From an uncultured virus (IMG/VR IMGVR_UViG_3300030118_005494) (taxonomy: Duplodnaviria > Heunggongvirae > Uroviricota > Caudoviricetes): 64,000 nucleotides of DNA. Below are positions 40,457 to 64,000 of the stretch, in pieces. Both the position numbers and the translations under genes were made by a program. The stretch lies in IMG/VR virus record IMGVR_UViG_3300030118_005494. The stretch is one strand, 5' to 3'. How positions within the stretch are numbered: the first letter of the stretch is position 1; each line of letters begins with the position of its first letter. The notes under the pieces were generated by a model that saw nothing but the letters and a program-made list of their open reading frames with translations, was not told where the DNA came from and did no database searches.

Positions 40457-40467
40457 AGTAACTCCTT

Positions 40468-40524
40468 AAAGTAAAACAGCCCCTACAATCAACGACAGAC
40501 CAATGTAATTAATGTAAGGGGCTG
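40468..40524 (-). terminator. Large-loop hairpin plus U-tract (terminator or sRNA 3' end)
   Basis: cagcccctaca (40477-40487) / tgtaaggggctg (40513-40524), 25-nt loop, followed on the - strand by TTTTACTTT. Confidence 0.55.
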
Positions 40525-40568
40525 AGTATCCAAATAGTTTGAAGGTTCGAAAAGAGCTATTTGAATTA

Positions 40569-40718
40569 GGTCAAGGTGGGTGGATTCGAACCACACTCCA
40601 TTAAAATATACTTAGCTATTTGCATTTCACTAAATAAACTTTAGTGTTTTCTTCCCATACCATTTACTTGGCACTAGCTCTGATGCACCAGTAACTAATG
40701 TTGCAGGGAACCACCTCG
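40569..40718 (-). ncRNA. tRNA-like structured RNA (~150 nt, non-canonical)
   Basis: 5' CGAGGTG pairs with 3' CACCTTG followed by A-CC; T-arm GTGG-TTCGAAT-CCAC at canonical spacing; enlarged interior with several hairpins. Confidence 0.6.
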
Positions 40719-40980
40719 GTAGAAATAAGTGTAGGCTTTCCACCTACTTGCTGGGTTGAGGATCAGGATGTGACCACCATTATCTAGTATTACAATCTCT
40801 GTGTATCAAGTACAAGAATCCCATTACTGGGTAATGTAAGTTTCATAGCTCAACTAGATTTTGCTCCACTTACACCATTTTGTCATAACCAGACTTTTTG
40901 TAAAACAGTCTTAACCATACAGGGATTCGGGCTGTTAAACTCACTTCACAGAAGATACTAAAATTAGACTAGGAGAAGAA

Positions 40981-43738: not shown

Positions 43739-45876
43739 TATTTACCCTTTAGTTTTTTGCGTACAGTTGTCATGATAGTTCCATCAATTTCAGAACGTGA
43801 CAGTTTATTCGCTAGTTTATCATTAAGCTCATACACAGCATTACGGACAGTTGTTTCATCATTATCCGCATCAACAAGAACTAAGGCATATTTAAGTAAT
43901 TGTTGGTTTCTGTTTCCATCGCCAGTATTACTAATAAACCATCGCTCAAGTGCATCAAAGTTAGCATATCGAGCATTATCTTTTTTGAGTTCTTCGTTTT
44001 TGGCTGTGTCTGGAATGAACATGAGTACGTTTAATAACTCACCATCATTGTCACACCACTCACCATCATGTGTTGCCCATTTACGAGAACGTTGACCTGT
44101 TTTAGTGTCTATCTCGATTGGCAGCCACTCAAAGATGTTATGCATGAATGTTTTATACTCGTCCATATCCATTTTAAGAATATGTGATATAGGGAGTATC
44201 ATGCGATATCTGTGATGATCTTCTGTGTGTCGTTTTGTTGTATGTAAGTGGTAGGTGTACTGTTCAAATAGCTTTTGGGCTACAGGAATAGGAGTACCAT
44301 CATCGATATCAAGTACAATACAGTTAAACCCGGGTAATGCATTATCGTCATGACGATACCCGTTTTTAAAGCTATGGTTACACCAGTGCAAACCATCAGC
44401 AGTAGTCAAATCAGAAAGTTGATCAAAGTCTGCTTTAACTGATTCATACCCTTCCGTAATATCATCACTGTAAGATAAGTACAATTCAGATAGCTTGGTT
44501 TTTTCTAGCTTCTCACCAGAAAGGAATTGAATACCATTGTGGTAGCTTCGACGTATTACTAAATTACGTCTCCAACCATCAGCAATAGCTAAATCTTCAA
44601 GCATTTTACGCTGTTGGGTACCACCTTTATAGAATGGTAAATCTTCTTCTAGGTCTGGTTGTGTTAGTGGGGTAGGAGAAGCAACAATGTAGTTTGCTAA
44701 TTTAACGTATGGACGATCACGAGTCATAATCCGGTTAAATGCTTCACCAGATTCTTCAACTAACTTAATAGCTGATTTCAGGTGTTCTTCAGTGATTTCT
44801 ATATCGCCATCCACGTAAGCATATGCACCAGCTATTTTGATAGCTTTAAAGTACCTGTGAGCCATTTCAGCACGTTTAATTTCATCATGCTCAGGCATCT
44901 TAGCTGCACGTTTTTCACAGAATAATTGATACTCAAGCCAAAGTAGAATTACATCTACTTCCATTGTCATTTGATGATCAAAGTAATCAACATCAGCTAA
45001 CTCTGCAATATGTGAAGCTAGGTTATCAATATACTCGTTTGTGTTAGTGCTTGTTTGGATATCGTAAAGCTGTTGTGGGGTGATATTTAAGTTTTTAGCA
45101 CCCGGGTCAGAATAACCAAATACAGAACGTCTAGCATATCCTGTTTCCATAAATGAATTGAATTCATCCTCTACTTTACCCCCATCAAAAACTTTAGCAG
45201 GAGTACCGTACAACATAGCATTAGCTGGTGTTCTACCATCTATTTCTTCGTTACGTTGACTATCATTGGTATTCTTTATCAGTTTGGTTTTAGTTTTACC
45301 GATATCATACAACTCAAGATATAAAGTAATTACTTCACCATTACCTAATAGGTTAGAGCCAATTTCATCAATCTCAAGGTTCATAGAACCTGCACCAGCC
45401 ATTAGTAGTTGATGTCTAAGTTGTTTTACAGCAGGTACAGTACCTGAATCAAAAGAGAATAATAATGGACCAAGCTTTTCAAATTCAGCAATAGCTCGTT
45501 CCAGTTCAATAGAATCATCACTCTCTTTCTTTTTGGCACGTTGAATAGCCAGCTTTGCTAAACTTTTCTCTGCAACAGCTGGATAAACTTCATTCAAAAA
45601 TTTATCTCTGAATGGCTTTAATACCTGTTCTTCCATGATTGCAGTTGAATGGCCTTTACCTGATCCTGATGTTGCTAAATTAATAGCATACATGTTGATA
45701 GGTAATACCCCGCGAACATGTGTATTAACACTGGCTCGCATCATAGAAGCTACTTTACAGAAGTTATATGCTACAAGTACTCGGAAAAACAAAGGACTAT
45801 TGTTTTGTGTTTTTGTACAGAGAATTTTAACAAGTTCTTCTGAAGTTTCGTTATACTCTAGATTGGATAAATCCAT
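43738..45876 (-). CDS. DNA primase / replication protein (N4 gp43-like)
   Basis: ATSGSGKG P-loop, IVLDIDDG, HTTKRH and C-terminal GNRNQQLLKYA primase-C motif. Confidence 0.88.
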   Translation of the reverse strand: MDLSNLEYNETSEELVKILCTKTQNNSPLFFRVLVAYNFCKVASMMRASVNTHVRGVLPINMYAINLATSGSGKGHSTAIMEEQVLKPFRDKFLNEVYPAVAEKSLAKLAIQRAKKKESDDSIELERAIAEFEKLGPLLFSFDSGTVPAVKQLRHQLLMAGAGSMNLEIDEIGSNLLGNGEVITLYLELYDIGKTKTKLIKNTNDSQRNEEIDGRTPANAMLYGTPAKVFDGGKVEDEFNSFMETGYARRSVFGYSDPGAKNLNITPQQLYDIQTSTNTNEYIDNLASHIAELADVDYFDHQMTMEVDVILLWLEYQLFCEKRAAKMPEHDEIKRAEMAHRYFKAIKIAGAYAYVDGDIEITEEHLKSAIKLVEESGEAFNRIMTRDRPYVKLANYIVASPTPLTQPDLEEDLPFYKGGTQQRKMLEDLAIADGWRRNLVIRRSYHNGIQFLSGEKLEKTKLSELYLSYSDDITEGYESVKADFDQLSDLTTADGLHWCNHSFKNGYRHDDNALPGFNCIVLDIDDGTPIPVAQKLFEQYTYHLHTTKRHTEDHHRYRMILPISHILKMDMDEYKTFMHNIFEWLPIEIDTKTGQRSRKWATHDGEWCDNDGELLNVLMFIPDTAKNEELKKDNARYANFDALERWFISNTGDGNRNQQLLKYALVLVDADNDETTVRNAVYELNDKLANKLSRSEIDGTIMTTVRKKLKGK

Positions 45877-46901
45877 TAGTCTGCTAATCCTCTTTTCTTT
45901 AATTGTTGGTACTGATTACATATAGGTCTGGAAGAACAGTATTCGCATGCTCTTGCTTTACCTTTATCTACTACTTTAACAACAATACCTTTGCCTTTTT
46001 CTCGTTTGTGTTGGTTAGCTTGTCTTTTCTCATCTTCAGTAAACGATTTTGAACAACGTTTACCTGCTTTATAGGACTCTTCTGAAGACCAATATTTATA
46101 CGAGACAACATCTCTCATCCATAAGTCTTCAGCATCACATTCAGGAAGCTTAGAATCAGGAAGTTTTTGTAGTTTCTGTATTTGTGGTATTTTCCAGTTT
46201 AAATACTCTTCTGTTTGCTTCACAGAAGCTAACTCAAAGTCCGTAGCAATAATTGGATGCTCTGGATAGTTACTTTGAGTATTGGCTTCGTAGCCACGAA
46301 AATCAGTAAAAAACCGTATAATAGTGATATGGTCTGCTGTGATATTTTCTGGATCTAACCAACGGTAAATACTGCCTTGTTGTGCGTACTTAAGGTCATT
46401 AGACTCATTTTTATATGCAAACACATTAGTCATTTTAAAATCTTGCAATGCTCTTTTAAATGCAAAATCAAGCTGACCAGAGACTGTCATACCTGCAATA
46501 TCACGATATTTACGTTTTTCGAGTTCAACAGGAATATCGTTAGGATGAGCATCATACCACTCTTTTGGCATGTTTATTGATATACGTTCTGCTACATGCT
46601 TTGGGATACCTAAAGATTTACATAACGGGACTATATTTCTAGGGTCACGCCACACTTTTTCAATAGCAGCGTGAATAGCAGAACCTAGACGAGAACGAAA
46701 CAAAGTCATTACATCAATTGGATCAGTGTCACTAGGTGTAACTCTAGATCCTAATATGATTTGTCGTAATGGCTTTATAAGTGTAGTTGTACTTATAACT
46801 TTCTCATCAGGATTATAGTCGTAATCATCTTTAGCTAACCACAATGCAACACTTAAAGGTAGGTCAGTACCATTTGCATATTGAGGCATAAATAAATCCA
46901 T
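45876..46901 (-). CDS. PD-(D/E)XK exonuclease (N4 gp42-like)
   Basis: GSAIH, SGQLD, QDFK, QGSIYRWL and C-terminal CEYC...C cluster. Confidence 0.85.
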   Translation of the reverse strand: MDLFMPQYANGTDLPLSVALWLAKDDYDYNPDEKVISTTTLIKPLRQIILGSRVTPSDTDPIDVMTLFRSRLGSAIHAAIEKVWRDPRNIVPLCKSLGIPKHVAERISINMPKEWYDAHPNDIPVELEKRKYRDIAGMTVSGQLDFAFKRALQDFKMTNVFAYKNESNDLKYAQQGSIYRWLDPENITADHITIIRFFTDFRGYEANTQSNYPEHPIIATDFELASVKQTEEYLNWKIPQIQKLQKLPDSKLPECDAEDLWMRDVVSYKYWSSEESYKAGKRCSKSFTEDEKRQANQHKREKGKGIVVKVVDKGKARACEYCSSRPICNQYQQLKKRGLAD

Positions 46902-57043: not shown

Positions 57044-57274
57044 TTATTTTTTAATAGCTAGTTTGACACCTTCAAGAGTTTTCCAGAACAAGATCAAAAC
57101 CATAGTGGAAATAATGACAATGCCCATGAAGACCCAACCTACAACCAAGAAAGAAATTCTAGCCCAACGTTTTTGGAGAATAGTAAAATCATTTTTGTAT
57201 TCTTGGATAAGGATAGAATTTAAAACAAAGTTAACTACAACAATAGCGAGTATTGAAAGTATTTCATTTAGCAT
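57044..57274 (-). CDS. Small two-TM membrane protein
   Basis: Two hydrophobic segments in 76 aa. Confidence 0.6.
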   Translation of the reverse strand: MLNEILSILAIVVVNFVLNSILIQEYKNDFTILQKRWARISFLVVGWVFMGIVIISTMVLILFWKTLEGVKLAIKK

Positions 57275-57569
57275 TACGATTTCTTTTATCCCTCAGTATG
57301 CAATTTTTCTTATGTGTAACTGGGTTTAGGTGATTAGGGTTAACACAAGCCCGATTACAGCAAGAATGGTCTAACTCACGATTCTCAATATTACCCCCAA
57401 CAAGAATGGTGTAAATGGCTCTGTGCGCCATATTACGGACACCTTTGTACCAAGTACGCTGATAACCATTAGGAGTTGGATCTTTGCCTTCAAATAGCCA
57501 ACAGGAGGTTTCAGGGCATACTTTAATTTTTTCTTGCATATGTGGGGGCAATACTGAGATATCGTACAT
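57264..57569 (-). CDS. HNH endonuclease (His-Cys type)
   Basis: CWL...GY...AHR...LDHSCCNRACVNPNHL...N. Confidence 0.88.
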   Translation of the reverse strand: MYDISVLPPHMQEKIKVCPETSCWLFEGKDPTPNGYQRTWYKGVRNMAHRAIYTILVGGNIENRELDHSCCNRACVNPNHLNPVTHKKNCILRDKRNRNAK

Positions 57570-58657
57570 TATTTTAGCTTACCTTGTCTGTATTGGTCTG
57601 TAACATCTTCTACGACTTTGTAACTACATACTCGGACTTTTGTATGATCATAATCAGAAGGGATTGATACAAAGTCTTGAGGTCGAACAATGCATTTAAT
57701 TACACGAATACGAGTATCAGCACCATATGAACTTAGGTAAGATGGTGCACATACATGTAAACCTCTAGAGCATGTTTGATCAGGGTCTTCGACTACAGAA
57801 CTGCGAAGCATTGTTACAGTTTCACCTACACCGTTGAAAATAGTATTTGAATAGAGATCCATAAAATCATTGTCTACTTTTTTATAGCATACAACGTTAC
57901 CTTTATCAGTTATTTCAATGTGGGCTTTTTTAATAAAAGTCCAAATTCTTTCATAAATATTGAGTGAAGGGCATGCTTGAATATTTTCAAAGAACTTCAA
58001 TAAATGCTCAAAAGGTTCTTCCCGGGTAAATGCATCTATAAGGTCATCTGCAAAATTATTTTTAATTGGCGTATCATTCATAAAGAATTGGTCATTCTCA
58101 ATTCTAAAATTGCCTTTTAAATACTTCTGTGCAGCAATTTTAATTGAAGCCAGTTCTAGTGCTTTTTCATTGTTACCTAGGGTCAATTCTAAAGCAATGT
58201 CTTGGTACTTAGGATGTTCTTTGGTTACAGCTAAAGAATCACCATCATCCAGTAAGAGGGTGATAAAAGAACCGGGGTCAATTGTCGCAGAAATAATAGT
58301 ACGCTTTTCATTTGTACTTTCTGTTGGTGTATCTGCCTTATCCGCAACTTCTGGTTCAGCAGTTTCAGGCTTTTTTACAGGAGCTTTAGGTCTAGATTTT
58401 TTAGGAGTTTTATCAGAGTCAGCTAAAACTTTCTTAGGATCTTTCTTGGGTTTATCTTTTGTTATAGTAGTGGCAGTAGTTTTATTTTCTTTGTGTAATC
58501 CTACGTTACTTAAAATCCTGTTTAAAGTTCTAGGGCTAATATCAAACTCTGCAGCTAGTTTTGTTTTGTTAACAGCACCATCTTTGAGTCTTTTTTCATA
58601 CTCAGTAATTATACTGTTGTTACGCTTTTCTACTTGGTTGGGTGTTAATTTTGTCAT
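57569..58657 (-). CDS. rIIB: rIIB-like protector from prophage-induced early lysis
   Basis: N-terminal HTH, CYKKV...DLYS, CSRGLHVC, DFVSIPSDY..KVRVCSY. Confidence 0.92.
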   Translation of the reverse strand: MTKLTPNQVEKRNNSIITEYEKRLKDGAVNKTKLAAEFDISPRTLNRILSNVGLHKENKTTATTITKDKPKKDPKKVLADSDKTPKKSRPKAPVKKPETAEPEVADKADTPTESTNEKRTIISATIDPGSFITLLLDDGDSLAVTKEHPKYQDIALELTLGNNEKALELASIKIAAQKYLKGNFRIENDQFFMNDTPIKNNFADDLIDAFTREEPFEHLLKFFENIQACPSLNIYERIWTFIKKAHIEITDKGNVVCYKKVDNDFMDLYSNTIFNGVGETVTMLRSSVVEDPDQTCSRGLHVCAPSYLSSYGADTRIRVIKCIVRPQDFVSIPSDYDHTKVRVCSYKVVEDVTDQYRQGKLK

Positions 58658-60935
58658 ACTTGTTTGCCTTATGAATTAAAATAAATAGTCGTTGTAGCCT
58701 GCTTAGTGTATTACGACTAAGCTTAATTCCTAAATATTTTGGGTTTTGTAATAAACGTTCTATTTTTGCTAGTTTCTTTGCTAAAGTTCTTGCTACATGT
58801 TTAACATAGCTTAATTCAGATCTTGGAACTTTTGGGATAAAATAATCACAAAAAGGAAGCATTGATATATTTTTATCTTCTTCATGTTCAATCAAGAAAT
58901 CTGAGTAGTTTCGTAAAAAGTTAAAAACATTTTTGTACAAATACTCTAATGTTGAGTCATTTACTAACTTATAGATTGTTTTATAGTAATCAGTGTAATT
59001 AAAGTATAAACTACTTTCGAATACAGAAATCTGTGCTGCTCGTAAATGAAGTTTATAAAGCTTTTTACTTTTTTGTGTTTTATTAGCAAAGTCAGAACCA
59101 AGTAAAAAAGAATAACGTTTAGATTCTTTTATTTTGTAATACGCAGATGAAGATACAAAAACAAATCTAATATTACTTTTCAATAAAAAGTTTGCTTTTA
59201 GAAATACTAAATATTCAAGCATATATGTGAATGTACGTTTGTATGTCACATCTACAAAATAAGTAGTATAATTAGGATCTTCAGATAGTGTACTGAAGAA
59301 CGCTAGTGTAGTCTTTCCAATTTCTGTTGTGTGTACTACGCTTGTGTTATCGGAATTACAATAAGCCACATCAAACCATGTTCGTGGTTGTGATGCTTTT
59401 ACTTTCTGTTGTATTTTTTCTTCTTGTTCTTTTGGTAACTTTGGTAAATCAACAACTACTATTTCATCATAATACTTCTGTAATTTACTTTTTAGTTTTT
59501 GAACGTTTTCACTATCTATAACTAAAAAACCATTTGATCTATGAGAAGCATAGGTAGAAAAAGCAGAATCATAACTAATTTCACCATGGTTTAAAAAATA
59601 CCCTAATTTATGTCTCATTTGAGGTTGCTTAACATATATAGTACAAGTTTTATTAGGGCTTGCTATGTGTTTTTCATAGTTAAATTTAAATGTTTTTTCT
59701 TTACTTGGATAGCAAACTGATACATTAAAAAGGTTAGAAACAGTATCTAGTGTACTATTTAATTTACTTCTCCATATTGGAATGAAGTGCACTAGACTAG
59801 TTCTCTTTTCTAGTGCACTCCAAAAAAATGTATAATTTCGTTTAATGTAATCTTTTGTAGTATTACCAAACTTTGTATTGTTTAAATTATCAGTAATAAC
59901 TGAATACGAATTTTTTCGGTTAGCCCAAACAAAAGTTAAAATTTCTTTTTTATAGTGTTTTAAAATTTTACTAAGCAAAAGACTTACTACATGGTTAGTT
60001 CTTTCACTATATTCTAAATTTTCACGATCTGGTTTAATATCTACAGCATCAACAGGAACATCTACGACAAATTGATATATTCCAGAAAGACTTTGAATTG
60101 CACTTAATTCTTCTTTCCATTTTTCTCCATGGTCTGAGTCTAGAGATAAAGGATAAAGTACACATCCCATGCGAATTGCAAAACTAGACTGATAATGGAT
60201 ATTAGCAGAGTAAAGAGGAAGTGATATTTCTGAAAGCTCTAATTCATTGTCTTGGGTAGGTAGATCAATTTTAACATTTAAGAAAGTTTTAGGGTTTTCC
60301 AGAGTATAACGATACCTGATATTATCACGACCAAAAACATTAGGTTTTACATCAAATGCGCTTAGTTCTTCTTCAAATGCATTAACAAATTTTTGGATGT
60401 TATTTTCTGATACAGGAACCTTTACCATTACACCGTTAGGCTCATCTGTTGGACCTTCTTGGAGTAGTTCTAATGGATTTTCATTCTTTTGGATACTGCT
60501 TCTGAATGTTCTACGAATACCATCTAAATATGTTGTAATGAAATAAACTTCAGTAATTGCAAATGGACTTTTACCTCCAATACCCCAACCACCAATAGAG
60601 TTACTTTCAGAGTTTTTAGATGAGTTGCCTAGCACTGAGTACACTTTAACAACTTGGTCTATATCCATAGAACAGCCATAGTCACGTACTATAAAGTACG
60701 GGTCTAATTTAGTTGGTAGAGTTACATCAAAAGGTTGATCTTGTTTGTTTACTGCAATGTGCGCATCTAAGCAGTTGGTGCATAGTTCACGAACAATTGC
60801 ATTGATTGGACGTAAATATAAGCTTTTAGTTAAGATAGTAAAAACTGTATTGTTCTGTTTGGCAGTATAATCCACTTTCATTAAAGGCTTAATGCCGATT
60901 GTTTTTACTTGGCTTTTAGTTAAGTTAAGACGCAT
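58620..60935 (-). CDS. rIIA: rIIA-like protein
   Basis: GHKL-type N-terminus LY..PINAIVRELCTNCLDAH, VRDYG, IGGWGIGGKSPF; upstream of rIIB. Confidence 0.9.
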   Translation of the reverse strand: MRLNLTKSQVKTIGIKPLMKVDYTAKQNNTVFTILTKSLYLRPINAIVRELCTNCLDAHIAVNKQDQPFDVTLPTKLDPYFIVRDYGCSMDIDQVVKVYSVLGNSSKNSESNSIGGWGIGGKSPFAITEVYFITTYLDGIRRTFRSSIQKNENPLELLQEGPTDEPNGVMVKVPVSENNIQKFVNAFEEELSAFDVKPNVFGRDNIRYRYTLENPKTFLNVKIDLPTQDNELELSEISLPLYSANIHYQSSFAIRMGCVLYPLSLDSDHGEKWKEELSAIQSLSGIYQFVVDVPVDAVDIKPDRENLEYSERTNHVVSLLLSKILKHYKKEILTFVWANRKNSYSVITDNLNNTKFGNTTKDYIKRNYTFFWSALEKRTSLVHFIPIWRSKLNSTLDTVSNLFNVSVCYPSKEKTFKFNYEKHIASPNKTCTIYVKQPQMRHKLGYFLNHGEISYDSAFSTYASHRSNGFLVIDSENVQKLKSKLQKYYDEIVVVDLPKLPKEQEEKIQQKVKASQPRTWFDVAYCNSDNTSVVHTTEIGKTTLAFFSTLSEDPNYTTYFVDVTYKRTFTYMLEYLVFLKANFLLKSNIRFVFVSSSAYYKIKESKRYSFLLGSDFANKTQKSKKLYKLHLRAAQISVFESSLYFNYTDYYKTIYKLVNDSTLEYLYKNVFNFLRNYSDFLIEHEEDKNISMLPFCDYFIPKVPRSELSYVKHVARTLAKKLAKIERLLQNPKYLGIKLSRNTLSRLQRLFILIHKANKYDKINTQPSRKA

Positions 60936-61537
60936 TACTTTTCCCCGTATTTTTCTGCTGCGTATGTTGTGTAATGTTCTTGGTATGCTTTTGCATTTTT
61001 TACTAGAAAATCAGAAAGAACTTCTTCGTTATCTACAACCCAAACAGAAGCAAAAGTATGTAGTTCTTTTTGGATCATATAAGTTACATCTTCAATGCTG
61101 TAACCAGCAAAGTCTGAGTAGTAATTAATTAAGTCGAATGCAGCCCCATTTATTGCTTGTTTTATGCTACTGAAGTTAGCGTACACAAAAATATTGTTTG
61201 CAATTAAGTACCGAATAAACATAGGTTGTGCAGCTATTCCTATTGCTTTACCTCGTATTTCTTGTTTCATTCGATATTTTTTATCAAACTTAATACGAAT
61301 ACTTTTATAGAAGTTAGCCATGGTTTTATAGTCATAATACTCTTCAACTAAAAGTGGGATTGTACTTACTCTGGTTCTGAGGGTTATTGTAATCCCATCA
61401 AATAACTTTGTTTCTGCGTTTGTTCCTACAGGTAATTCTTTAAATAATACCGGAATTTCTTTTACGCTAAAGTAATAACTAATACTTCCTACTACAGCCA
61501 GAAATACGGCAATAAAAATAAAAATTGAAATAATCAT
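60935..61537 (-). CDS. Membrane-anchored hypothetical protein
   Basis: N-terminal TM helix; GGAG RBS. Confidence 0.65.
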   Translation of the reverse strand: MIISIFIFIAVFLAVVGSISYYFSVKEIPVLFKELPVGTNAETKLFDGITITLRTRVSTIPLLVEEYYDYKTMANFYKSIRIKFDKKYRMKQEIRGKAIGIAAQPMFIRYLIANNIFVYANFSSIKQAINGAAFDLINYYSDFAGYSIEDVTYMIQKELHTFASVWVVDNEEVLSDFLVKNAKAYQEHYTTYAAEKYGEK

Positions 61538-61553
61538 GGTAACTCCATAGGTG

Positions 61554-61643
61554 AAATAAAATGCACATTAAACTGTAGATAATCATTACGGACGAGAGCA
61601 TGAACGTAAATTAAAATTAAGACTATCTACAGATTAATATGCA
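61554..61643 (-). ncRNA. Candidate hairpin sRNA with loop antisense to the RNAP II subunit 2 RBS
   Basis: 23-bp inverted repeat 61562-61584 / 61621-61643 with two G-U pairs on the - strand, U-tract after it; loop TGCTCTCGTCC is complementary to the leader at 62773-62783. Confidence 0.6.
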
Positions 61644-61724
61644 CTGGACTATCTAGTTTTAGGGTATAGGGTAAAGTAGCTAAAAATAGCTGTTTTAAGT
61701 AAAGTTAGGATATTATTTTTAAAA

Positions 61725-61765
61725 AATAAAATACCAGAAAAAGACACCGAAGGTGTCCTTTCCTG
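61725..61765 (-). terminator. Rho-independent terminator after RNAP II subunit 2
   Basis: gacacc-gaa-ggtgtc core (61743-61757), stem extendable with G-U pairs, T-rich tail on the - strand. Confidence 0.75.
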
Positions 61766-61782
61766 TATATTTTTTATTCAAT

Positions 61783-62772
61783 TTAGCATATATGATATTC
61801 AGCTGTTTTCATTAGAGTAGATAGTTTAGAAGTTCTCTTTCTAGTTCTTATGAACTTTCCTGAAACTTCTCTTGCTATCGTATCTAATAAGTTCGAATCA
61901 GCTAGTTCTTTGAATATCTTTAAGTAGTGATACCTCAGTTCATTTACTCTATTTGGAAGTACTGCAAAACAGTCATGAATACTTAAGATAGGAAAGTTGC
62001 ATCGTCTGCGTAATTCTCTAACTACATATCCGTCTATAGACTGTACTATGTTTGCTGGCATTGGCTTGTTGTACGTACTGGTAGTATTGTCAGTGAATTG
62101 ATATGTGAAAGTAGTACCTTCTAATTCATTGATTTCTACCTTAGTTTGGAACTTATCCAGTACAGGTACATGTGCAACATGACCATCAGGTAATGTCCAT
62201 TGGTGGTACAGTGCTTTACTGTTCCAGAATGACAGCATTAAGTACATAAGGTCTGTAGCCCCGGGAAACTCTTCAGCAAGGGTTGTATAGAACATTTCAA
62301 GTTCATGTGTATCCTTGCCAAATACCTTCTGAGGTTCTGCTGTAGAAGCATAAAAGAATGTCATTGTAGGTGGTTTGATCACACTTCGTTCAAGGCGCTT
62401 ACCTACAAATTTAGACATTGTTTCAGCCATATTGTTGTAAGCACACTGACACCCATTAACGTTAATGAGATTGACATTCTCAGCAGTGTCAGGACATCCA
62501 GACAGTACAGCTAATATTTGCAACCCAGAAGCTGTAGCATCGAACATAACAGGTATGTTACAAGGTTCACCTTTATACGCTGCATCTATGGCTCTAACAG
62601 TTTTAGCTGCAAGTATTGCTTCTTTCCCTGTTTCCAGTATTTCTTCTCTGTTTATGTTGTTGTGATATACAGCTTGACCTATCTCTAATCTTTCATCCCA
62701 ATCTTCTTTATCGAAGCCTAAATTATTGGCTAAGTTAATGAATAAATACTCTAAACCTGTAAATTGGCGCAT
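61783..62772 (-). CDS. RNA polymerase II subunit 2 (N4 gp16-like, T7-like C-terminal half)
   Basis: Motif A FDATASGLQ, motif B RSVIKPPTMTFFY, ANIVQSIDG, motif C IHDCF. Confidence 0.93.
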   Translation of the reverse strand: MRQFTGLEYLFINLANNLGFDKEDWDERLEIGQAVYHNNINREEILETGKEAILAAKTVRAIDAAYKGEPCNIPVMFDATASGLQILAVLSGCPDTAENVNLINVNGCQCAYNNMAETMSKFVGKRLERSVIKPPTMTFFYASTAEPQKVFGKDTHELEMFYTTLAEEFPGATDLMYLMLSFWNSKALYHQWTLPDGHVAHVPVLDKFQTKVEINELEGTTFTYQFTDNTTSTYNKPMPANIVQSIDGYVVRELRRRCNFPILSIHDCFAVLPNRVNELRYHYLKIFKELADSNLLDTIAREVSGKFIRTRKRTSKLSTLMKTAEYHIC

Positions 62773-62796
62773 TGCTCTCGTCCTTATTTCAGATAT

Positions 62797-62818
62797 AAAA
62801 AAGCCCCAATTAAGGGGC
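62797..62818 (-). terminator. Rho-independent terminator
   Basis: gcccc-aattaa-ggggc with A6 on + (U-tract on -). Confidence 0.7.
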
Positions 62819-62838
62819 GTATTCAGTGTTGATACTAC

Positions 62839-63006
62839 CTAGTTCATCATTTTCCAATCTTGGACAAATGAAGCTGTCTGTGCTCGGGTTAAGTTAAACT
62901 TAGTTCGAACTGTGTCGTATACTGTGATGCTGTCATATTTTCCATCATCCTTAAGTTGACTAATGAACTCCATAACTGCTTTTTTCACATCTTTAGTTTT
63001 AGACAC
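62839..63006 (-). CDS. 55-aa hypothetical protein between the RNAP II subunits (absent from the ORF track)
   Basis: AGGAG RBS, GTG start, MSKTKDVKKAVMEFISQLKDDGKYDSITVYDTVRTKFNLTRAQTASFVQDWKMMN-stop; fills the gap and overlaps the subunit 1 stop. Confidence 0.7.
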   Translation of the reverse strand: MSKTKDVKKAVMEFISQLKDDGKYDSITVYDTVRTKFNLTRAQTASFVQDWKMMN

Positions 63007-63913
63007 TTGTTATTTCTCCTTTTGCAAAGTTAATAAGTGCTTTCTTATATTCAGTTGATTGTATATTGATATGATGTCCTTTAGAGTACATACGCCCTCT
63101 ACTATCATACCCGTAACGCAAATAGAATCTGTTACCTGCGTCTAGTATTTCGTTATACACTTGTTTGCTTGTATTAACCAATAGTTCAAATTGTCGTTTC
63201 TTTTCAATTGTATCTAGTGGCTTATTACTTTTCTCTGGAATTTTAAGTACCTCAGTATCCAGAGTTAAGGCTTGCTGTGCATATAAATTCAGCGCATCTA
63301 CAGCTATGTTAGGTGTATTTCTGGCTAAATGATGTCCTAACATACATGAGCCATCTACGTTGCTGTAAGAGCCATCTGTGGAGACATCTTGATATGCCAT
63401 TGGCGGTATTAGAGAAGGTGGAACATACATAAAACTATTTATCAGTTCAATTGTATCTTCATCCAATTCCATACAGGCAGTAACATACATTTCATTGTAC
63501 TCGTTAAAGTCAATATCCACTAAATCTGCTTCTGCCATTAAGACTATCAATTCAGCTGCTGTAGTGACTTTATCTCGGGTAGTGAAATCAGCAAACAAAG
63601 TATTATTGAACCACCCCATAGTAGCTCCACATACAGCTTGAATTGACATTGTTTCATTGCTGGCTAATAGCGGGGTTAACACGTATAGAAAGAAATCAGT
63701 AACCTTGTTAAGTTCTAACTTCAGTATGTTTAACCTAGTTCGTTTTGATTCATACCCGGGGTCGTGTTTAACCCATTCCTTAAATGAAATAAATGCTTGC
63801 ATGAAATGCAACCGCATATCCAAATCTTCAAGTAATTCTTTCTCGATTATTTTACGGATATTCTTTTTGGAATATCTGAGTTCTAAATCAAGTTGTTGTT
63901 GTAAAGCATTCAT
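62999..63913 (-). CDS. RNA polymerase II subunit 1 (N4 gp15-like)
   Basis: YESKRTRL, YVPPSLIPP, YDSRGRMYSKGHHINIQ (DxRGR motif); AAGGAG RBS. Confidence 0.92.
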   Translation of the reverse strand: MNALQQQLDLELRYSKKNIRKIIEKELLEDLDMRLHFMQAFISFKEWVKHDPGYESKRTRLNILKLELNKVTDFFLYVLTPLLASNETMSIQAVCGATMGWFNNTLFADFTTRDKVTTAAELIVLMAEADLVDIDFNEYNEMYVTACMELDEDTIELINSFMYVPPSLIPPMAYQDVSTDGSYSNVDGSCMLGHHLARNTPNIAVDALNLYAQQALTLDTEVLKIPEKSNKPLDTIEKKRQFELLVNTSKQVYNEILDAGNRFYLRYGYDSRGRMYSKGHHINIQSTEYKKALINFAKGEITSV

Positions 63914-63930
63914 ACTATCTCCTTAAAAAT

Positions 63931-63951
63931 TAAAAGGCTCCCGAAGGAGCC
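63931..63951 (-). terminator. Rho-independent terminator
   Basis: - strand GGCTCC-TTCG-GGAGCC-TTTT. Confidence 0.8.
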
Positions 63952-64000
63952 AATTAGGTTATTTAAAGTTCGATATCATCAGTTTCAATGAACTGGATAG

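Follow-up and report, generated by a model that had tools for sequence, protein, structure and literature searches.

A predicted RNA stem-loop between the RNA polymerase II genes and the next transcription unit of an uncultured marine N4-like phage

What is the role of a long inverted repeat that lies just beyond the RNA polymerase II (RNAPII) genes of an N4-like phage, shortly ahead of the next gene, and whose loop is complementary to the ribosome-binding site of one of these RNAPII genes? The question is raised by a stretch of 64,000 nucleotides (nt), hereafter the window, of the uncultured virus IMGVR_UViG_3300030118_005494 from IMG/VR. The window is part of a marine N4-like (Schitoviridae) phage. 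N4-like phages use a cascade of three polymerases, of which the middle promoters and the early-to-middle hand-over are poorly understood (PMC4496689, PMC9163698).

The inverted repeat, located at 61562-61643 where the early genes give way to the middle genes, almost certainly corresponds to a real RNA element. The reading that we favour, and to which we give not quite an even chance, is that it encodes, on the minus strand, an RNA stem-loop within the 5' leader of the transcription unit that comes next, whose helix would act in cis. An earlier examination of the letters alone (hereafter the sequence-only reading) had proposed instead an antisense RNA limiting RNAPII synthesis by negative feedback. 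Such antisense feedback would be attractive and is moderately supported by the statistics given below, but it is unconserved in distant relatives.

Fold and strand of the hairpin

The element comprises two features:

61562..61643, minus strand: stem-loop with two 23-nt arms and a 36-nt loop that includes a 5-bp upper stem (repeat search and folding)
61547..61561, minus strand: U-rich tail, UUUUAUUUCACC..., between the stem and GGAG, the Shine-Dalgarno sequence of the next gene (sequence and folding)

As the sequence-only reading had noted, the two arms of the repeat (61562-61584 and 61621-61643) are 23 nt long, complementary at 20 of their 23 positions (87%) and separated by a 36-nt spacer. 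Among the 41 inverted pairs with arms lying within 120 nt in the whole window, this repeat ranks third by length and displays the highest complementarity of all those of at least 19 nt. No second copy of the arm sequence was found in the window with up to three mismatches allowed, and inspection by eye of the surroundings of the hairpin revealed no flanking direct repeat of the miniature-transposon type. The three mismatches, which are C.A, A.A and A.C on the plus strand, become G.U, U.U and U.G on the minus strand. Two of the three are thus converted into wobble pairs on the minus strand only, as also noted previously, and the minus-strand stem consists of 12 + 12 pairs flanking one U.U mismatch.

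The predicted fold of the minus-strand RNA has an energy of -31.3 kcal/mol (z -6.41) and that of the plus-strand RNA an energy of -24.1 kcal/mol (z -3.83); for each strand, none of 200 shuffled sequences equalled the native one. The hairpin is retained when the minus-strand RNA is folded in a 157-nt leader context, with a minimum free energy of -35.8. It is clearly more than a chance structure, and both its asymmetry in G-U pairs and the energies of the two folds make a minus-strand RNA hairpin the best reading of the element.

On this strand, the stem is followed by the U-rich sequence UUUUAUUU, in agreement with the tail previously described. An intrinsic terminator, which would have a short GC-rich stem and a loop of 3-8 nt ahead of a U run, was considered and rejected: the stem is AU-rich, the loop is 36 nt long, the element was not called by the terminator scan, the U-rich tail alone fits, and a contig from an RNA library (see below) continues through the hairpin. 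The predicted 12 + 12 pair stem provides the near-continuous double-stranded RNA of at least about 20 bp expected of an RNase III substrate. The Rfam covariance models gave no match at E <=1 in 60000-64000 and none at gathering score in the whole window.

The hairpin as proposed leader of the following transcription unit

The genes and signals that surround the hairpin are the following (lengths in amino acids, aa):

62999..63913, minus strand: RNAPII subunit 1 (N4 gp15-like), 304 aa; phrog_2166 'N4-like RNA polymerase', E 4.8e-59
61783..62772, minus strand: RNAPII subunit 2 (RNAPII-2), the large subunit (N4 gp16-like, palm/fingers part), 329 aa; phrog_2051 'RNA polymerase', E 2.2e-96; Pfam PF00940, E 4e-17
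61735..61765, minus strand: terminator-like hairpin of 14 pairs (6 G-C) with a TTCG-centred loop, then a T run, directly past the RNAPII-2 stop (terminator scan)
61644..61734, minus strand: AT-rich spacer (sequence), within which an RNA-library contig ends at 61656
60935..61537, minus strand: next gene, 200 aa, hydrophobic N-terminus, no family (open reading frame (ORF) list; no PHROG or Pfam match)
58620..60935, minus strand: rIIA-like gene, after the 200-aa gene
57569..58657, minus strand: rIIB-like gene, after the rIIA-like gene

The first two ORFs match RNA polymerase families, one of them annotated as N4-like, and correspond to the split RNAPII of an N4-like phage. The identity that the sequence-only reading had assigned to RNAPII-2 is confirmed by both its PHROG and its Pfam matches, and a search with this protein returned 117 homologues, one of which (P0002) shares 64% identity with it.

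The hairpin lies in a 245-nt spacer 3' of the RNAPII genes, past their terminator-like hairpin, and ends 24 nt before the next ATG. The order on the minus strand is the RNAPII-2 stop, the terminator-like hairpin, about 90 nt of AT-rich spacer, the stem-loop, UUUUAUUU, GGAG and the ATG at 61537. Four public sequencing runs, only one of which (X12) is an RNA library, were compared over 61000-63000. In X12, the hairpin, the U tail and the downstream genes are joined in one 8990-nt contig, which spans 61000-61656 and extends further below 61000; its upper end, 61656, is located 13 nt 5' of the stem. Another X12 contig (61760-62230) carries the 3' part of RNAPII-2.

The leader reading is favoured because the hairpin is located past the terminator-like hairpin and 24 nt before an ATG, and because the RNA-library contig is continuous from the hairpin into the downstream genes. 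The transcript would start, or would be processed, just 5' of the stem, and the stem-loop would thus head a transcription unit encoding the 200-aa protein, the rIIA-like protein, the rIIB-like protein and onward. The 24-pair helix would act in cis on the downstream mRNA, either as a processing site for a double-strand-specific enzyme of the RNase III type, as a 5' protective hairpin or, together with the U tail, as a partial terminator. With such a role, the match between the loop and the RNAPII-2 start region is unneeded for the main function of the element and may be a coincidence.

Phages carry hairpins recognized by RNase III in their leaders and between their genes, for instance R0.3 and R1.1 of T7 or the lambda N leader. 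The element resembles them by its stem of about two turns, its intergenic location just 5' of a Shine-Dalgarno sequence, its position at the boundary of a transcription unit and its proximity to RNA polymerase genes. However, the T7 sites display characteristic internal loops, whereas the stem predicted here is a near-perfect helix of 24 pairs that carries a large loop. More generally, hairpins serve as promoters and terminators at the stage boundaries of N4-like phages, and terminators of the phage LUZ7 are often read through, both of which are in keeping with a leader (PMC4496689, PMC9163698).

The interval 61657-61759, which separates the two X12 contigs (ending at 61656 and 61760), was considered as the mark of a transcript start or end and is taken as no more than a lead, this gap coming from one run of one study and from contigs only; the DNA run X15 spans it. 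The depths of the contigs (88.7 vs 21.3 and 48.6) are unusable for ranking the genes. In a further run, X20, the identity to the window is 84% over 61004-61273 (42 differences in 270 nt) vs about 97% over 61274-61671 (11 in 398), a step that suggests a mosaic exchange inside the 200-aa gene.

Predicted pairing of the loop with the RNAPII start regions

Two short sequences are involved in the complementarity:

61590..61602, minus strand: anti-start-region sequence, CAUGCUCUCGUCC, in the 14-nt apical loop (sequence, 11-mer search)
62770..62786, minus strand: RNAPII-2 start region, UAAGGACGAGAGCA + AUG, putative target (sequence, repeat search)

The 11-mer GGACGAGAGCA has exactly two occurrences in the window with at most one mismatch, at 61590-61600 on the plus strand and at 62773-62783 on the minus strand, where it abuts the ATG of the RNAPII-2 ORF. 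The expected number of occurrences is 0.24, and two or more were obtained in 1 of 100 shuffles. The loop therefore carries the exact complement of the 11 nt that precede the RNAPII-2 ATG, as the sequence-only reading had stated, and the match extends to 14 nt (13/14, 93%). The loop 11-mer lies 183-195 nt beyond the RNAPII-2 stop codon, in accordance with the distance of about 190 nt previously given.

It is possible, although we hold it to be less likely than the leader reading, that the element is a riboregulator, the loop of which pairs strongly with the Shine-Dalgarno-to-AUG region of RNAPII-2, pairs less strongly with the corresponding region of RNAPII-1, and prevents their translation. 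The RNA carrying this loop would be either the leader of the next mRNA or a short RNA, generated when transcription terminates at the U tail or when the stem is cleaved. As such an RNA would arise once the next transcription unit is active, it would exert a feedback on RNAPII synthesis or shut it off. In a developed form of this hypothesis, which remains doubtful, the 5' loop of the first post-early transcript would be an antisense of the RNAPII-2 start region, and partly of that of RNAPII-1; by masking both as it accumulates, it would halt the synthesis of RNAPII, the polymerase of the middle genes, and constitute an RNA-based, product-driven switch from early to middle transcription.

Various predictions argue for a riboregulator. 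Eleven contiguous Watson-Crick pairs adjoin the AUG, and the predicted energy of the duplex, from -20.2 kcal/mol for the 11-mer alone to -24.4 kcal/mol (-20.2 to -22.4 when set against the opening costs), outweighs the cost of opening the loop (+2.5 kcal/mol) and the 11 nt of the target (+4.3 kcal/mol). In the predicted ensemble, 10 of the 13 anti-start-region nucleotides are unpaired with a probability of 0.83-1.0. When the loop was scanned against the 57 start regions of the window, RNAPII-2 ranked first with -24.4 kcal/mol (mean -10.4, standard deviation 3.1), and it keeps this rank when six further early-gene start regions from outside the window, which pair at -7.6 to -11.1 kcal/mol, are added. 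The RNAPII-1 start region (about 63914-63935) is second of the 57, pairing with the loop (61585-61620) at -17.8 kcal/mol through 10 predicted contiguous pairs over the AUG, including 2 G-U, plus GGA/UCC. Only 3 of 300 shuffled loops reach -24.4 kcal/mol with any start region. A riboregulator would also account for the large size of the loop and for the ranks of both RNAPII start regions, and is compatible with the anatomy of a leader.

Other results argue against it. The match between the loop and the ribosome-binding site was found post hoc, being chosen for study on account of the match itself, and 111 of 3000 shuffled loops have an 11-nt antisense match to some of the 57 start regions, mostly AT-rich ones. 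Two minus-strand sites that are not start regions pair with the loop about equally well (-25.5 kcal/mol near 44470 and -23.2 near 46130), and RNAPII-1 (-17.8) is only slightly ahead of the start region that ranks third (-16.0). Furthermore, the GC-richness of the target (7/11) is not distinctive since it is common to 5 of the 57 start regions. The match is therefore beyond chance only moderately. The claim that a GC-rich 11-mer at this place is unlikely to be fortuitous is thus supported in part. The proposal of a trans-acting antisense RNA agrees with the minus-strand hairpin, with its loop predicted to be largely unpaired and with RNAPII-2 as best predicted partner, but the joining of the hairpin to downstream genes in one contig fits a leader better than a free-standing sRNA.

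The same 11-nt complementarity could also operate in cis, the loop on a read-through RNAPII mRNA folding back onto the start region of this mRNA, 1.17 kb upstream, in the manner of the fold-back inhibition element (fbi) of hok. Read-through of terminators is common in LUZ7 (PMC9163698), which would make such an mRNA conceivable. Nevertheless, this fold-back, which the sequence-only reading had put forward as its second option, is disfavoured because the terminator-like hairpin of 14 pairs and its T run intervene between the RNAPII-2 stop and the element, and the X12 contig that carries the hairpin is joined to the downstream genes and not to RNAPII-2; we regard it as very improbable. The hok mRNA does offer a likeness, as its fbi and tac sequences associate a 3' element with a complementary 5' translation region in the same gene cluster. 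It differs from the locus described here by the terminator-like hairpin that intervenes in the latter, by the lack of a continuous transcript in the compared runs and by a toxin/antitoxin context that is absent here.

Several observations weigh against the favoured reading, i.e. a leader whose helix acts in cis. The contigs that link the hairpin to the downstream genes carry no strand, ends or level, and the RNA library may include DNA. A scan for sigma-70-like promoters gave none on the minus strand of the spacer; the motif ACCCTATA has three matches vs 1.88 expected and is not a repeated promoter motif, and TACTTAA is scattered across coding sequence without forming a promoter-like repeat. 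A covariance model of the hairpin searched against 65 loci of relatives retrieved nothing at E <=10 except a fragment of 12.6 bits (E 8.6). Moreover, the top two partners of the loop among 63 start regions are predicted to be precisely the two RNAPII genes, which a purely local role would leave unexplained, and a hairpin devoted to stability or processing has no need of a loop as large as 36 nt, with 14 nt exposed and accessible at its apex.

Phages are known to encode antisense RNAs that mask ribosome-binding sites: the c4 RNA of P1 and P7, which acts on icd/ant, and the sar RNA of P22, which acts on ant. The c4 RNA is cut from a longer transcript and displays a two-loop arrangement. As in both systems, the element is a phage stem-loop with a loop complementary to the Shine-Dalgarno sequence and start of a nearby gene of the same cluster. 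It differs from them by its position 3' of the putative target, apparently on the next transcript, and by the lack of any Rfam match, including to the C4 family; it differs further from c4 by its 11 nt carried by one loop instead of two. By its anatomy, the element appears most like these phage antisense RNAs directed against ribosome-binding sites (c4, sar) or like the RNase III leader hairpins of T7 and lambda. Closer in lineage, putative small RNAs (sRNAs), some of which are thought to be processing products, are located between orf69 and orf70 of LUZ7 (PMC9163698). They share with the element the status of non-coding RNAs of a schitovirus intergenic region and differ from it by their location in the late region and by having no target known.

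Literature searches, which included PMC4496689, PMC7145618 and PMC9163698, brought up no paper on antisense control of RNAPII in N4-like phages. Should the loop indeed mask the start regions of RNAPII, a phage RNA polymerase would be under simple feedback by an RNA, an mRNA leader would act in trans, which is rare, and the switch would be of a type undescribed for N4-like phages in the papers retrieved. If the loop has no such action, the element would still indicate where the first transcription unit after the early genes probably begins in this uncultured lineage of marine schitoviruses.

The repeat could also operate as DNA at the early/middle boundary, as a cruciform or as a protein-binding site (loading of RNAPII and its cofactor, operator or origin), with the repeated 14-mer representing two binding sites. 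The AT-richness of the spacer and the confinement of the 14-mer to two neighbouring intergenic regions are consistent with this explanation. In addition, N4 RNAPII requires single-stranded AT-rich promoter DNA, and promoters of N4 and LUZ7 are DNA hairpins (PMC4496689, PMC9163698). The hairpin promoters of N4 vRNAP and of LUZ7 early and middle genes are described as having a GC-rich stem of 5-7 bp (at least 6 in LUZ7) and a 3-4-nt loop, about 11-15 nt upstream of the start site (PMC4496689, PMC9163698). The element resembles them in belonging to the same phage family and in being an inverted repeat located at a stage boundary ahead of a transcription unit. Its identification as such a promoter was rejected on account of its 23-bp AU-rich arms, its 36-nt spacer and its location inside the RNA-library contig. 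The DNA-level explanation as a whole is improbable: besides this disparity in stem and loop, two transition mismatches favour the pairing of one strand's RNA, which a cruciform would not select, and the arm is found nowhere else in the window.

Relatives and neighbouring genes

The comparison with relatives involved 81 loci, of which 79 come from distant relatives with 34-45% protein identity, while the other two (L001 and L002) belong to the IMG/VR contig of the phage itself. Pairing was compared in 32 loci (including L002) that have an ATG and a Shine-Dalgarno sequence at the start of the match, fused or ambiguous starts and duplicates, as judged by eye, being left out; a 28-nt start region was paired with the 300 nt that follow the stop. 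With this protocol, the phage itself gives 11 nt and -26.2 kcal/mol, an energy beyond that of all 930 cross-pairs of relatives, only one of which reaches 11 nt and none of which is below -22.5 kcal/mol, a result that argues for a riboregulator. Conversely, own pairs are no better than cross pairs in the 31 distant relatives (longest match 6.7 vs 6.5 nt on average, energy -12.8 vs -12.8 kcal/mol), so the lack of conserved complementarity that the sequence-only reading had named as counting against its proposal is indeed observed in distant relatives.

The region 5' of the next ORF folds with z < -3 in 19 of 42 relatives. Structured spacers are thus common at this place in the family, which is in favour of a leader, but their sequences show no relation to one another, and GC-rich hairpins of the terminator-like type make up many of them. 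A search for the core of the arms (9+9 nt) retrieved 55 IMG/VR loci, of which 54 have loops of unrelated sequence and extend the arms by only 0-6 of the 12 further pairs; the extended arms are found only in the phage's own contig. No difference from the window was found in L001, L002 and L137 over their overlap with it, and L117 comes from the IMG/VR contig to which L001 and L002 also belong. A scan of metagenomes for relatives gave a single locus, which is identical, and a phage collection (475 records) contained no isolate phage at >=60% protein identity, with a DNA match of 81 nt only.

Among the sequencing runs, X15 shows 19 differences over 61000-62346 (1347 nt, 1.4%), all located outside 61540-61663, and its contig covering 62414-63000 has none in 62773-62786 among the 10 of 11 differences listed. 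In X20, which diverges by 2.8% nearby, the 10 of 11 differences listed in 61274-61671 all lie in 61348-61501. As these close copies show no listed change at the hairpin or at the target, they are uninformative on co-variation.

The singleton status of the element, without homologue in the 65 loci of relatives and with extended arms in a single contig among 55, would also be expected if it had no function and merely resulted from a recent inverted duplication or a scar left by recombination, in a spacer under little constraint, the match to the start region being fortuitous. We consider this improbable in view of the fold (z -6.41). The maintenance of an unchanged element in strains that diverge by 1.4% (X15) and 2.8% (X20) nearby also argues against it, but is weak evidence since only about 1.2 changes are expected in 82 nt for X15.

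In five of the relatives' loci (L053, L055, L063, L066 and L078), a motif close to ATACTTAAGATTA stands between the T run of the RNAPII-2 terminator and a small inverted repeat; this motif may be the promoter of the next unit in that sub-clade. Its only counterpart in the window is TACTTAAAA, from 61701 on the minus strand.

Two further features are located between the RNAPII genes:

62839..63006, minus strand: small ORF, 55 aa, no PHROG or Pfam match
62803..62818, minus strand: GC-rich hairpin GCCCC-TTAATT-GGGGC then a T run, just 5' of the RNAPII-2 start region (terminator scan); terminator or N4-type hairpin promoter

A hairpin with the same TTAATT loop (CCC-TTAATT-GGG) and a T run on the coding strand is found 3' of RNAPII-2 in 9 of the 79 relatives' loci (L040, L045, L055, L064, L067, L069, L071, L073 and L075), while the copy in the window is 5' of RNAPII-2. 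TTCG-loop hairpins have a similar frequency (10/79).

The genes from 39.3 to 64 kb are on the minus strand, and a block of plus-strand genes terminates with a 3173-aa ORF. The public sequencing runs that contain the stretch are marine or algal metagenomes, plus one single-organism run. A 40-aa minus-strand ORF (61479..61601) begins at an AUG in the hairpin loop; by eye, it has no Shine-Dalgarno sequence, and it runs into the next gene in a different reading frame. Downstream, a 101-aa ORF (57264-57569, minus strand) overlaps the stop of the rIIB-like gene (TAATG) and gives a sub-threshold match to an HNH endonuclease (Pfam HNH_3, E 5.5e-05, 23.2 bits vs a cut-off of 24.8). Among the minus-strand genes, a 524-nt gap without any ORF of at least 50 aa (40457-40980) contains a string similar to a tRNA T-arm, GGTTCGAATCC; ARAGORN found no tRNA or tmRNA in this gap and Rfam no family. 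Finally, past the high end of the window, the spacer ahead of a 91-aa early ORF without family (L001, 1381-1535) shows by eye two short hairpins, GTGTGC-TTC-GCACAT and GTCC-TTCG-GGAC, which are candidate hairpin promoters of the vRNAP type.

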